A DNA stretch of 64,000 nt from a virus. The stretch is taken from positions 19,745-83,744 of IMG/VR virus record IMGVR_UViG_3300045974_000429; one strand, written 5' to 3'. A program made the translations under genes and the position numbers. The notes beneath the pieces are model-generated. The model ran no database searches, was not told the DNA's origin, and saw nothing but the letters and a program-made list of their open reading frames with translations. Position 1 is the first letter of the stretch. Each line of letters begins with the position of its first letter. Positions 17,690 to 20,495 of the stretch are shown one piece after another.

Positions 17690-18103
17690 CTACCGGATCT
17701 CCAGCGTGCGGAGGCCGTTCGCGACCGTGCCCGCCACCGAGTAGCAGTAGAGCTGCGGGAGGGCGTCCGACCCGCGGTAGCCCAGGTCGAATGACGCCGT
17801 CGTGGAGGAGCCGGCGATGGGGAACCCGGTGCTCGTACTGGCGGCGATGGGCGAGACGTAGATCGTGGCCGAGTCCTGGTTGCTGACGAACAACTGCGTC
17901 CGGCCCGGCAACGGGCTCGTGATGCAGGGAGTGGACGTGGCGCCGGCCGCCAGGGTCTTGGAGGTGACCTGGACCGCGGGCTGGGCGCCCACGATGGCGG
18001 CCTGAGCCGGAGGATCCTGGAGGATCAGCACGGCGGCGGCGAAGCCGACGAGCACCCCGAGTAGCGCCAGGAGGGCGCGAGACGCGGACGATGGTCTGGG
18101 CAT
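17690..18103 (-). CDS. Signal-peptide-bearing small beta-rich protein (paralog A)
   Basis: n/h/c signal ending AQA; PCI.SPL..RTQL...N...TIY; ends EIR. Confidence 0.75.
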   Translation of the reverse strand: MPRPSSASRALLALLGVLVGFAAAVLILQDPPAQAAIVGAQPAVQVTSKTLAAGATSTPCITSPLPGRTQLFVSNQDSATIYVSPIAASTSTGFPIAGSSTTASFDLGYRGSDALPQLYCYSVAGTVANGLRTLEIR

Positions 18104-18106
18104 GGC

Positions 18107-18514
18107 CTACCGGATCTCGATGAACCGGATGTCGCCGGTCGTGGTCGCGGACTGCCAGCACCAGAGCTGCCCGTAGGTCGTCGGGGGGCCGTAGAACCCG
18201 CCCGTGTAGGGAGTCACCCCCTGATACCAGTACGGCATGAACGGCGTGGTCGAGCCCGCGCCGAGGTACGCTCCGGTCGAGGAGGTCATGGTGGCAGCCG
18301 GTCCGAAATACAGCGTGCTCGTGGAGTTGTTCAGGATCTGGAGCTGGGTGCGGTTGAGCAGCGGGCTGGCGATGCAGGGCGAGGAGGACGCCGCCCCGAA
18401 CGTGGCCACCGTGACCTGCATGGCGGGCAGGGATTGGGCCGAGGCCGGGTTGGAGATCAGGAGGCCGGCGAGGAGCGCGGCGAGGCCGAGGAGCTTCTGG
18501 GCGGTGCGAGTCAT
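18107..18514 (-). CDS. Signal-peptide-bearing small beta-rich protein (paralog B)
   Basis: MTRTAQKLLGLAALLAGLLISNPASA|Q; GGAGGG RBS; same core motif and EIR terminus as paralog A. Confidence 0.78.
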   Translation of the reverse strand: MTRTAQKLLGLAALLAGLLISNPASAQSLPAMQVTVATFGAASSSPCIASPLLNRTQLQILNNSTSTLYFGPAATMTSSTGAYLGAGSTTPFMPYWYQGVTPYTGGFYGPPTTYGQLWCWQSATTTGDIRFIEIR

Positions 18515-18638
18515 GTGTCCCTCCGAGGGATGAATGTTGTCGGGAGGCACCTTGCCACCGACGAACGGAAAATGGAAGTCGGGCGGGGCGCCACCACGGC
18601 AACGGCGGTCAGGACGGTGCGCCATGGGCTGGGCTGGC

Positions 18639-20495
18639 TCAATTGCACACCCACGCGCCGTTCAGCCGCTTGGCGATGGCCCCCGTGCCTCCCGCTGCGC
18701 ATGGGTTGGCGATCGTGCAGTCGGAGCAATAGGAGATCGTGCCGTTGGTTGTGACGCCCGTACCAAGACCCGAGAACGTTACCGGCGAGAGCGTGAGCTT
18801 GCCGTAGACGTCCACCGACATCGTAGACGTCGCGTTGTTCTGCACGAGGAGGCTGTAGCCGGCGGTTCTGGCGCCGCTGGACGCTAGGGTGACATCAGCA
18901 CCCGCAGAGCCAGCAGCCAGCCCGCTCGTGATGGTCACCCGGCTGCTGTTGTAGGCGCCGGACAGGGTTCCCGCGTAGACGGTGCCGCCGCCGCCTCCCA
19001 CGTTGATGGGGGCCGAGAACTGCTGCTGGAACGATGCGTTCATAAAAATATCCGCCCCAGAGTAGCCGCCATAGGTATTGATTTTCGACCCGGCCGGCAC
19101 CACGACGCCGCCCGCGAACGTTCCCGTACCGGACTGGCTGATCGAGTAGACCGTGGTCGTGCTGTAGCCGCCAGCGACGAGGTTTGCCGACGAGATGTCG
19201 ATTGTGTTGACGGAGTAGGAGCCGACCGCCTCCCACGGCATCGTCAGGACAGTGTAGATGCTAGAGCTGATGACCTGGACGGGGGTGCCCGCTCCTGTCC
19301 CGGCGGCGACGTTGAACACGCTCGACTCGATGACTACACTCGAGACGGCGGTGTCGATTTGGAGGTCAGGATAGGTGGACGTGCCCGCCGTGCTACGCAC
19401 CCCGCGAATGCTGACCTGACTGCCGCCGGCCACGAGGGGGCCCTTGCCGATGTAGATCATCGGACGATTGGCGGGGTTCGGCTGGTCCCAGACCATCGAG
19501 TCGGAAATCTCACTCGTGATGCACGACAGGACCTTGATCGCGCCACCGCCCGGAGTCTCAAATGCCACGTCTCGAATGTGGTTCGCATAGCCGTAGCTCG
19601 CGTAGCCGTTGTTGGTCTGCTCCAGCCAGATCGCGTACGTGCCTGACGTCGTGCTCCCGCCATAGGAGTATGCGTGCTCGATCGTGATGTGCTCCGTCGA
19701 GGCGCTCGCCAGATTGAGCGCGGGCACCGTGTTGCCGGCCGCATAGGCAAACGAGAAGTCGTGAAGGTTGTTAACGAAGAACCCCATTGTGGTGCTGGAG
19801 GCGTTGATAACGGACTTGGCGGGGTTGGTCTGGACCATGACGACGTTTCGCCACTCAGACGCGGTGACGTTGCTGGCCGCCGTCAGGTTGAAAACGTGCC
19901 CGCCCGTGCCGAGCGCGGAGACCATCGTCAGCCCGTCCACGAGGACACCACTGATCGCCGCGTTCGATGACGCTGTGAACAGGTCCGACACGCTGTTCGT
20001 GATCAGCGATGGCCCAATGCCCCAGACGCAGCCGGGGTTGCTGCATCCGGTCCCCGCCTGTCCGCGCCCCGCGCCCCGGAGCCGGAGGCCCGACTTAATC
20101 ACGATGGGGGCCGACGTCTTGTAGGTGCCGGCAGGGAAAAAGACCTCGCCGGTGGATGCTGCCACGGCGGCGTTGATCGCGTTCGTGTCGTCCTCGGTGT
20201 GGGTGGTGCCGTCGTAGAGGCCGACAGCCCCGAAGTCTTTCACGGACACGGTGTCGGCGAATCGGTCCTGCAGTGTCCGCCCCGTCGTGCTCCCGGTGCT
20301 CGTGACGTGGGAGTCGTGGACGTGGTCGGCGCGCGAGAAATATAGGCTGGAGCCCTCCGAGGCGGAGGTGCCGAGTAGCCCGGTGCTCGTGGCGGTGAGC
20401 GCCTGCTTGGTGGACAGGCCGGTCGAGCCCGCCAGGATGCCTCCGGCGGCGAGGAGAATCAGGGCTGCGAGCGCGATGCGGGTGAAGGGGTTCAT
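18639..20495 (-). CDS. Tailspike-like beta-helix protein (pectate_lyase_3-type) with N-terminal signal peptide
   Basis: TVSVKDFGAVG...DDTNAINAA...VFFPAGTY; Cys-rich C terminus CSDC..C..NGAWVC. Confidence 0.85.
   Translation of the reverse strand: MNPFTRIALAALILLAAGGILAGSTGLSTKQALTATSTGLLGTSASEGSSLYFSRADHVHDSHVTSTGSTTGRTLQDRFADTVSVKDFGAVGLYDGTTHTEDDTNAINAAVAASTGEVFFPAGTYKTSAPIVIKSGLRLRGAGRGQAGTGCSNPGCVWGIGPSLITNSVSDLFTASSNAAISGVLVDGLTMVSALGTGGHVFNLTAASNVTASEWRNVVMVQTNPAKSVINASSTTMGFFVNNLHDFSFAYAAGNTVPALNLASASTEHITIEHAYSYGGSTTSGTYAIWLEQTNNGYASYGYANHIRDVAFETPGGGAIKVLSCITSEISDSMVWDQPNPANRPMIYIGKGPLVAGGSQVSIRGVRSTAGTSTYPDLQIDTAVSSVVIESSVFNVAAGTGAGTPVQVISSSIYTVLTMPWEAVGSYSVNTIDISSANLVAGGYSTTTVYSISQSGTGTFAGGVVVPAGSKINTYGGYSGADIFMNASFQQQFSAPINVGGGGGTVYAGTLSGAYNSSRVTITSGLAAGSAGADVTLASSGARTAGYSLLVQNNATSTMSVDVYGKLTLSPVTFSGLGTGVTTNGTISYCSDCTIANPCAAGGTGAIAKRLNGAWVCN

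Follow-up and report, generated by a model that had tools for sequence, protein, structure and literature searches.

The window analysed here, a 64,000-nucleotide stretch of an 83.7-kb IMG/VR myovirus contig from an uncultured, soil-type phage, carries four late-region genes, all on the minus strand, whose products begin with a leader-like N-terminus. They encode two tailspike-type proteins, spike 1 (18639..20495; 618 aa) and spike 2 (52461..54044; 527 aa), and two small paralogs, A (17690..18103; 137 aa) and B (18107..18514; 135 aa), the former being the final gene of the late operon. The N-termini quoted for all four genes in the original prediction were found as stated, at the starts best supported by ribosome-binding sites or coupling. 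Spike 1 begins at the ATG at 20495, with GGAGG 5 nt upstream and an ATGA overlap with the endolysin stop codon, and spike 2 at the ATG at 54044, with AAGGAG 6 nt upstream; an extension of the latter ORF to 54074 is unnecessary. Paralog B starts at 18514 (GGAGG 5 nt upstream), not at 18625, and paralog A at an ATG at 18103, 3 nt past the paralog B stop.

The spike 1 leader (20427..20495, minus strand) consists of MNPFTR, then IALAALILLAAGGILAG, with 17 uncharged residues and a candidate cleavage site ILA|GS. That of spike 2 combines MSTGFK with 16 uncharged residues and ALA|VP. The predicted Sec leader of paralog B has a textbook form (MTRTAQK, a 13-residue h-region and SNPASA|QS) and would leave about 108 mature residues, while paralog A carries two Arg and a 19-residue hydrophobic segment, then QDPPAQA|A. 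All four leaders possess K or R among the first nine residues and, by our own heuristic, small residues at positions −3/−1 after the h-region (ILA|G, ALA|V, ASA|Q, AQA|A). Neither a lipobox Cys nor a twin-Arg motif is present in any of them, which argues against a lipoprotein or Tat signal. The h-region of a Sec signal peptide is uncharged and about 7–15 residues long; the three leaders with h-regions of 16–19 residues may possibly be uncleaved anchors.

Our leader heuristic requires K or R in the n-region, a stretch of ten uncharged residues averaging >= 2.0 on the Kyte-Doolittle scale, and small residues at −3/−1; we applied it to the 80 genes of the whole contig. It flagged ten: the four leader genes, four genes for membrane proteins in the lysis-like cluster (48853, 50742, 51331, 52181) and two false calls at internal GTGs, one in baseplate J and one in an early gene. 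None of the genes recognised as encoding head, tail or baseplate components was picked up by this heuristic at its proper start. The noted similarity of the two spike leaders was also borne out, with 13 of 21 helix positions identical; the proteins share 38% identity over residues 6–143, helix included.

Spike 1 comprises the leader (residues 1–22), one fibre-type His-x-His repeat (~23–80), a right-handed beta-helix (~80–395), an unmodelled region and a C-terminal four-Cys motif YCSDC..C..WVC (589–617). The PF12708 match (1.8e-10) scores 41.4 bits against a gathering cut-off of 27. Residues 80–395 of the AF2 model mostly reach pLDDT 80–93, and Foldseek returned 35 PDB matches at E<=0.001, including the Sf6 and CBA120 tailspikes, AlgE4 and PfbA; beta-helix enzymes and tailspikes were matched at a probability of 1.00. 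Between the leader and the beta-helix only the His-x-His repeat was recognised, a unit present in 10–20 copies in giant proteins; this region matched no family in Pfam, PHROG or NCBIfam. The Cys clusters noticed earlier are real: the protein contains seven Cys (151, 156, 325, 590, 593, 599, 617).

Spike 2 consists of a leader (1–22), a linker PTGGRGISQQG... and a PF12708/Beta_helix domain (PF12708 1.4e-17, 64.6 bits against the cut-off of 27; PF13229 4.8e-9). It matches 18 PHROG tail or tail-spike families through residues ~30–200 only, and a PDB sequence search recovered the Sf6 tailspike (1.7e-6). Tailspikes are made in the cytoplasm and possess an N-terminal particle-binding domain. The tailspikes of Sf6 (PDB 2vbk/4urr) and CBA120 (TSP3; 5w6f/6nw9) have the right-handed beta-helix and the PF12708 N-terminal motif in common with the spikes described here, whereas a 22-aa leader occupies the place of their N-terminal particle-binding domain. 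Many uncultured tailspike-like proteins share a linker 'PTG..Q.GTGAV..R..VSVKDFGA'. Ordinary relatives read as a domain of about 100 aa followed by PTG..LIG..Q.GTGAV.., and spike 2 reads as the leader followed by PTGGRGISQQGTVLQAGTGAV. In spike 2 the leader thus takes the place of the ~100-aa N-terminal domain of ordinary tailspikes exactly at the 'PTG...' junction.

Among relatives, leaders are rare: 7 of 201 proteins have one, a figure that includes two from the window itself, as do 4 of 100 ORFs. One relative, P0002, is 94% identical to spike 1 over residues 1–83, leader helix included, and differs in its body. The helix is also kept in P0208, P0213 and P0239, where it is hydrophobic and lies right before a conserved TGLSTQQ segment. 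A search with spike 1 residues 22–90, from which the helix was excluded, recovered these three helix-bearing proteins, so the spike 1 leader is conserved in diverged relatives, the point that a survey proposed in the original prediction was to check. For spike 2, P0086 keeps the leader ahead of a GDSL esterase body and P0048 has a similar one.

The leaders are further associated with the Cys-rich C-terminal module. In other contigs, 16 of the 21 complete ORFs that have a spike 1-type four-Cys motif at their end are leader-like by the heuristic. The corresponding figures are 6 of 97 for PF12708-motif ORFs without the Cys motif and 139 of 1405 for the remaining six-frame ORFs, with Fisher p = 5e-11 and 2e-12. 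The count derives from 33 loci, 12 of which were left out as having, by the pattern used, no complete motif-ending ORF, being truncated or carrying a non-terminal motif (L092, L093, L096, L097, L105, L106, L109, L110, L113, L114, L115, L117). One of the five ORFs failing the heuristic (L108) is leader-bearing by eye. Because the leaders stand at the best-supported starts, are conserved in relatives and go together with the Cys-rich C-terminal module, export signals are the most likely reading of these hydrophobic N-termini. Whereas the virus particle is assembled in the cytoplasm, these four proteins thus probably mature outside it.

Paralogs A and B share 39% identity (E 6e-16), and each contains the Cys pair ascribed to it, two Cys at aligned positions. 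They gave no Pfam, PHROG or NCBIfam match, a word search recovered only the query protein itself, and the ORFs of 83 other loci contained no match (best E 0.018). Atlas returned only unnamed viral clusters (at 0.95), and AF2 with a two-sequence alignment gave no usable model (pLDDT 43.6). The missing lipobox argues against an o-spanin. Class III holins possess a single TMD with N-in, C-out topology (PMC3556154); one N-terminal helix with a ~100-aa outer domain, as in the paralogs, fits this class only loosely. We guess that the paralogs may serve as a partner, an inhibitor or a lectin-like helper of spike 1. Around the cassette neither a promoter-like site nor a convincing terminator was found, and a separate 'moron' unit is therefore not supported.

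Both spike genes adjoin lysis genes. Spike 1 is coupled to a soluble phage lysozyme (20492..20941, minus strand; PF00959 1.2e-39; phrog_7 endolysin 1e-48) in which a hydrophobic N-terminus is absent. Directly downstream of spike 2 lie four small membrane-protein genes (50742..52513, minus strand), holin-like or spanin-like candidates, one of which (50742–51320) has a weak Rz-like spanin match (phrog_312, E 8e-4). In other contigs a lysozyme lies directly upstream (L105) or downstream (L099, L113) of the leader-bearing gene, or a cell-wall hydrolase two genes on (L094). One locus (L045) shows the order true tailspike, lysozyme, membrane protein, leader-bearing PF12708 protein and acyltransferase-3 gene. 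Lysis cassettes commonly come after tail genes anyway, so this adjacency is weak evidence.

We hypothesize, at somewhat under an even chance, that the spikes are Sec-exported, periplasm-matured glycan enzymes of tailspike type that are released at lysis. Late in infection, the host Sec pathway would take all four proteins through the inner membrane. The spikes would represent right-handed beta-helix glycan-active enzymes whose customary N-terminal attachment domain has been lost in favour of a leader, and spike 1 and both paralogs would probably gain disulfides in the periplasm. There the enzymes could attack envelope polysaccharide, as free proteins or while an uncleaved leader still tethers them. 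Lysis of the cell by way of the neighbouring endolysin and holin genes would then free the enzymes alongside the progeny; the freed enzymes may clear capsule, EPS or O-antigen and keep progeny from sticking to debris. Export, cleavage and disulfide formation of the leader-bearing proteins are what we infer from sequence features, and the substrate of the spikes, as well as their staying off the virion, is presumed here. The disulfide argument raised at the outset may apply to spike 1 and the paralogs and does not extend to spike 2, whose single Cys means that disulfide maturation is not the general reason for export. Sec export alone would bring the proteins only as far as the periplasm, with a putative benefit at most over lysis release of a cytoplasmic enzyme.

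The main alternative, which we consider rather unlikely, is that the proteins are exported as genuine parts of the virion, appendages that fold and oxidise in the periplasm and bind to finished particles only at lysis. Against the free-enzyme hypothesis, and fitting virion parts, leaders in three contigs precede what looks like a standard N-terminal tailspike or fibre domain. The leader of L118 has an RBS (GGGGG) and no alternative in-frame start, and the region after it can be aligned with the very N-terminal ends of 54 spike proteins without a leader; the corresponding regions align to the N-termini of 38 leaderless relatives in L032 and of 2 in L105 (2110–3006). Pfam names none of these three domains, and calling them attachment domains relies on their position and established knowledge. 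In L105, a GTG past the helix could yield a leaderless form, which weakens that case. A minimal protein made of a leader, the His-x-His repeat and the Cys motif (L091) also fits a virion part, being encoded directly upstream of tail genes; its neighbours are a phrog_8234 gene, a small ORF and the tape-measure gene. The identity of spike 1 and P0002 over residues 1–83 resembles swapped tailspike heads on a kept anchor, although recombination between close relatives at the conserved DTVSVKDFGA would equally explain the mosaic. The fibre-type nature of the His-x-His repeat points in the same direction, as does a cultured precedent: gp49 of the virulent Burkholderia myophage Bcep781 (NP_705672.2), encoded in the tail region, was annotated by its GenBank depositors as 'possible tail fiber; possible signal peptide domain'. 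The gp49 N-terminus, MNMKKNKHVLFGVLLTACGLPAFA|Q, resembles a classic leader, and the stated relatives of the protein are Bcep43 gp48 and Bcep1 gp51. Bcep781 gp49 gave no Pfam match, and it was rejected as a spike 1 homologue for want of detectable similarity (E 0.74).

Several observations disfavour appendages. Spike 2, tested for a particle-binding N-terminal domain, is without any domain of the attachment type, and fibre-type genes other than the spikes follow baseplate J in this phage. No docking site was recognised either: the 'baseplate adaptor' label previously given to 20938–21363 finds no family support in Pfam, PHROG or NCBIfam, and its product is unrelated to the protein encoded upstream in L091. 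The initial claim of exported virion appendages is partly supported: the three contigs with leaders before standard domains favour it, and spike 2 and the lysis-gene neighbours speak against it. A broader version, in which soil phages, likely of Acidobacteriota, export their leader-bearing spikes and fibres, oxidise and trim them in the periplasm and dock them at lysis only, seems unlikely to us; such two-compartment assembly would be a route not described for tailed phages.

Two further explanations concern the leaders themselves. The spike leaders might stay uncleaved, as a signal-anchor, possibly a signal-anchor-release (SAR) domain, tethering the proteins until the holin collapses the membrane potential and thereby timing the depolymerase with lysis. 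A SAR domain is an N-terminal helix that has many weakly hydrophobic residues and lacks a cleavage site. The spike helices, 16–17 residues long, contain 50–53% Ala/Gly/Ser/Thr (37–38% in the paralogs), a composition that may suit a SAR domain; plausible cleavage sites are present. Their mutual likeness is unusual for generic leaders, helices of relatives are Gly/Ala-rich, spike 1 has no polar c-region ahead of ILA|GS, and its gene is coupled to that of the endolysin. SAR endolysins also provide an established precedent (PMC6116005). We nevertheless regard such a tether as quite doubtful, given the canonical ALA|VP site in spike 2 and the relatives P0087 and P0088, which start exactly one residue past this site as fits a cleaved mature end, though a gene-call artefact is possible. 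A literature search at title and abstract level found no report of SAR domains beyond endolysins and antiholins. It is very improbable that the N-termini are not export signals at all, being buried elements of virion fibres (such as the core of a trimer or a tip that enters a membrane) or the result of misassigned start codons. The public call of paralog A, which starts 16 codons downstream, and two relatives (P0285, P0300) whose genes begin inside or after the helix would suit this explanation. But the shorter paralog A call still begins inside the hydrophobic helix, and when the objection that the true starts lie downstream was checked, the upstream starts had strong ribosome sites or coupling in all four genes. 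Basic n-regions and small −3/−1 residues in all four proteins, together with classic AxA|Q leaders in most Cys-motif relatives, also argue for export.

The free-enzyme hypothesis has a partial parallel in Lys44 of phage fOg44 and enzymes of the P1 Lyz type, lytic enzymes that, as the spikes may do, enter the Sec route on an N-terminal signal peptide or SAR domain and are activated or released at lysis (PMC6116005). Those enzymes are peptidoglycan hydrolases, whereas here the endolysin is leaderless and the leader-bearing spikes are predicted beta-helix enzymes of polysaccharide type. SignalP leaders were reported for 3261 of 64,678 prophage CAZymes (5%), treated as auxiliary metabolic genes; that survey does not appear to cover spike-type proteins encoded in late or structural operons (PMC13507307). 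Our literature search found no paper on leader-bearing tailspikes and no mechanistic paper. The suggestion of an undescribed pathway should be toned down, since the pattern itself was already recorded in the Bcep781 gp49 annotation.

In the prevailing view, tailspike-type depolymerases are folded in the cytoplasm and carried by the particle. In this phage, and in related contigs numbering in the dozens, proteins of this kind bear a putative export signal, which goes with a Cys-rich end module. Free exported enzymes would give phages a periplasmic arm stripping host surface sugars at lysis, and virion parts would mean that tailed-phage assembly spans two compartments. Either case affects the prediction of receptor-binding proteins from metagenomes, the expression of such enzymes (oxidising folding) and host-range inference from soil viromes.

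Searches of wider collections recovered few relatives. Scanning viral_contigs with spike 1 gave no match. The spike 1 N-terminal module gave one marginal locus in viral_contigs and none in metagenome_contigs with alignment A1, and no match in viral_contigs or genome_contigs with alignment A3; P0213 as a query gave two marginal loci. Among cultured-phage proteins, matches were confined to the PF12708 motif. A blastn search of cultured phages yielded short stretches only, in three records; the genes hit were the Pseudomonas phage Persinger endolysin gene and, in one uncultured record, hypothetical genes.

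The genome is a linear IMG/VR record of 83,744 bp with an estimated completeness of 88%, of which bases 19745–83744 form the window; the window has a G+C content of 68%, and its minus strand holds almost all genes. In downstream reading order, the late region begins with the portal gene (60270–61967), two genes of unknown function, a methyltransferase, an 866-aa repeat protein and spike 2 (52461–54044; 527 aa). Four small membrane-protein genes follow, then head genes, sheath-sized, tube-sized and tape-measure-sized genes, baseplate J (23664–24878; PF04865, 1e-22), three unassigned genes and a soluble phage lysozyme (20492–20941; PF00959, 1e-39). 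Downstream of the lysozyme lie spike 1 (18639–20495; 618 aa) and two small related proteins, paralog B (18107–18514) and paralog A (17690–18103), after which the operon ends. The 866-aa protein (54084–56684), whose gene adjoins spike 2 on the upstream side with the methyltransferase further upstream, contains Ser/Ala/Asp-rich repeats (..SESASPADAQAA..) and has no family match. An intein-like insert (CFPAG...VHNC) splits an ATPase gene at 13932–16307.

Translational coupling joins spike 1 to the endolysin gene, and 16800–21500 holds no promoter-like site, so the proteins of the spike 1 cassette are late proteins rather than conversion genes expressed from a prophage. Late expression argues against a superinfection-exclusion role for spike 1 in lysogens.

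Both spikes contain PF12708 above threshold, spike 2 additionally Beta_helix, and they share 38% identity over the first ~140 residues. The AF2 model of spike 1 (18-sequence alignment) is a beta-helix, confident only for residues 80–395; the leader, an N-terminal signal-peptide-like segment, appears as a lone helix, and residues 18–79 and 396–607 fall outside the modelled part. Foldseek returned 35 matches at E ≤ 0.001 to beta-helix carbohydrate enzymes, adhesins and phage tailspikes, including PfbA, AlgE4, CBA120 TSP3 and the Sf6 tailspike. By sequence, spike 2 matches the Sf6 tailspike (1.7e-6) and AlgE4 via the N-terminal motif only. Paralogs A and B (39% identity) had no hit in Pfam, PHROGs or NCBIfam; neither a word search nor the ORFs of 83 fetched loci yielded relatives, and the AF2 model was not usable. 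Their nearest Atlas clusters are viral and unnamed. The Cys residues originally noted in spike 1 and the paralogs are present, in all seven in spike 1 and two at aligned positions in each paralog; spike 2 has a single Cys.

The original prediction had assigned Sec signal peptides to these four proteins, and all four leaders were confirmed, each at the best-supported start of its gene. The ATG of spike 1 overlaps the lysozyme stop (ATGA) with GGAGG 5 nt upstream, spike 2 has AAGGAG 6 nt upstream, and paralog A starts at an ATG 3 nt past the paralog B stop. A 172-aa ORF reaching 18625 was rejected as too long for paralog B, because the ATG at 18514 is backed by GGAGG 5 nt upstream. Every leader comprises a basic n-region, 13–19 uncharged residues and small residues at −3/−1, with candidate cleavage sites ILA|G (spike 1), ALA|V (spike 2), ASA|Q (paralog B) and AQA|A (paralog A); a lipobox Cys or twin arginine occurs in none of the four. 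A simple rule built on the same three features flagged 10 of 80 contig genes, namely these four, the four membrane proteins encoded downstream of spike 2 and two internal GTG codons wrongly taken as starts, and no recognised virion gene among the 80 was flagged at its own start. The two spike leaders (20427–20495 and 53979–54044) are identical at 13 of 21 helix positions (..I.LAAL.LLA.G..LA..TG), a likeness far beyond the need of generic signal peptides that may reflect recent copying or a constraint peculiar to this helix.

A survey of homologs found the helix kept in four relatives of spike 1 (P0002, P0208, P0213 and P0239) and one of spike 2 (P0086). P0002 is 94% identical to spike 1 over residues 1–83, where the substitutions within the helix are conservative; beyond that point its body is a different one. 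A HMMER search with spike 1 residues 22–90, the helix left out, retrieved 117 proteins, five of which align at their own N-termini over nearly the whole query; P0002 is a sixth. The hydrophobic helix directly precedes a conserved TGLSTQQARTA segment in P0208, P0213 and P0239, and the called start lies inside or past the helix in P0285 and P0300. P0086 joins the spike 2 leader to a GDSL esterase body, and P0048 has a similar leader. Two further spike 2 relatives, P0087 and P0088, have gene calls that open with 'MPTGGRGIS', precisely one residue beyond the ALA|V site, and are either natural leaderless forms or GTG gene-call artefacts. Few spike relatives have a leader: 7 of 201 proteins, including the window's own two, and 4 of 100 ORFs in viral loci.

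Scans for the C-terminal four-Cys motif of spike 1 (YCSDCT..PC..G.GA.A.R.NG.W.C) found it in 30 viral loci and three genome loci. Twelve loci lacked a complete ORF with the motif at its end and were left out of the count. Of the 21 complete ORFs that do end in it, 16 are leader-like by rule (a 17th, in L108, by eye), versus 6/97 PF12708-motif ORFs without it and 139/1405 other six-frame ORFs (Fisher's test, p = 5e-11 and 2e-12). The association is strong but not absolute, since the motif occurs without a leader in L101, L102, L103 and L111. We infer a role in disulfides rather than metal binding. Leaders that are conserved and tied to this motif give good indirect evidence that they would export these proteins to an oxidising compartment. 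Of the three genome loci, two carry Acidobacteriota names (Ca. Angelobacter, Pyrinomonadaceae), a hint that the phage group has its hosts in this phylum. The motif sits on leader-bearing proteins from Acidobacteriota MAGs in L086–L088.

The feature may be described, from sequence, as a recurrent joining of a tailspike-type enzyme to Sec export, statistically tied to a Cys-rich module. Export in some form is probable, and its absence, or wrongly called starts, very improbable. Our best reading, held tentatively, is that spikes and helpers would cross via Sec and mature in the periplasm, and that lysis would set these glycan enzymes free. An uncleaved anchor or SAR-like tether seems improbable, even with spike helices that are strikingly alike and 50–53% Ala/Gly/Ser/Thr. 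The idea of an export route for virion appendages fared unevenly: the leaders are real, conserved and Cys-linked, but the spike 2 leader replaces an N-terminal domain, which in model tailspikes binds the particle. Ordinary relatives carry about 100 aa of this domain before PTG..LIG..Q.GTGAV..R..VSVKDFGA, whereas spike 2 has a 22-aa leader before PTGGRGISQQGTVLQAGTGAV.., so the replacement falls at the junction. Spike 1 has in its place one His-x-His repeat unit (..EGSSL.F.RADH.H..), present in 10–20 copies in giant fibre-like proteins; in trimeric fibres, motifs of this kind coordinate metal ions along the axis.

Loading of the exported proteins onto virions at lysis is an unlikely alternative, and the evidence divides over a virion role. 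Against a canonical one, both spike genes adjoin lysis genes, and comparable layouts recur: a lysozyme lies directly upstream in L105 and directly downstream in L099 and L113, a cell-wall hydrolase two genes on in L094, and L045 encodes in order a true tailspike with N-terminal domain, a lysozyme, a membrane protein and a leader-bearing PF12708 protein. In favour of a virion role, the stretch that follows the leader in L118, where the leader ORF has the RBS GGGGG and no other in-frame start, can be aligned with the very first residues of 54 spike proteins that lack a leader; the corresponding stretch likewise matches 38 leaderless proteins in L032 and two in L105 (2110–3006); Pfam names no N-terminal domain in these three loci, and particle binding there is an analogy with model tailspikes. 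Also in favour, L091 (5644–6153) encodes a 169-aa protein consisting of leader, His-x-His unit and four-Cys motif, i.e., spike 1 minus the beta-helix; close downstream of it lie a phrog_8234 gene, a small ORF and the tape-measure gene.

Among known systems, sections of PMC6116005 establish Sec-exported (Lys44) and SAR endolysins, and sections of PMC13507307 report SignalP leaders on 5% of prophage CAZymes. The literature searched yielded no study of leader-bearing tailspikes. In GenBank, gp49 of Bcep781, a cultured Burkholderia myophage, bears the note 'possible tail fiber; possible signal peptide domain'. The protein begins with what looks like a classic leader and is not homologous to spike 1.

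The leader-bearing fibre-type gene at L105:2110–3006 has an in-frame GTG just past the helix and could yield both leaderless and leader-bearing forms. The phage contig L032 (46% G+C) carries three consecutive genes with signal-peptide-like N-termini at 5894–9758, and in the third, a fibre gene, the leader precedes a standard N-terminal domain; next come a small ORF that by visual inspection looks like an M15-type peptidase, though Pfam gives no match, and a lipobox protein. An acyltransferase-3 gene (L045:12049–13128, minus strand; PF01757, 3e-30), of a family that includes surface-sugar acetylases, lies on the opposite strand next to the leader-bearing PF12708 gene.
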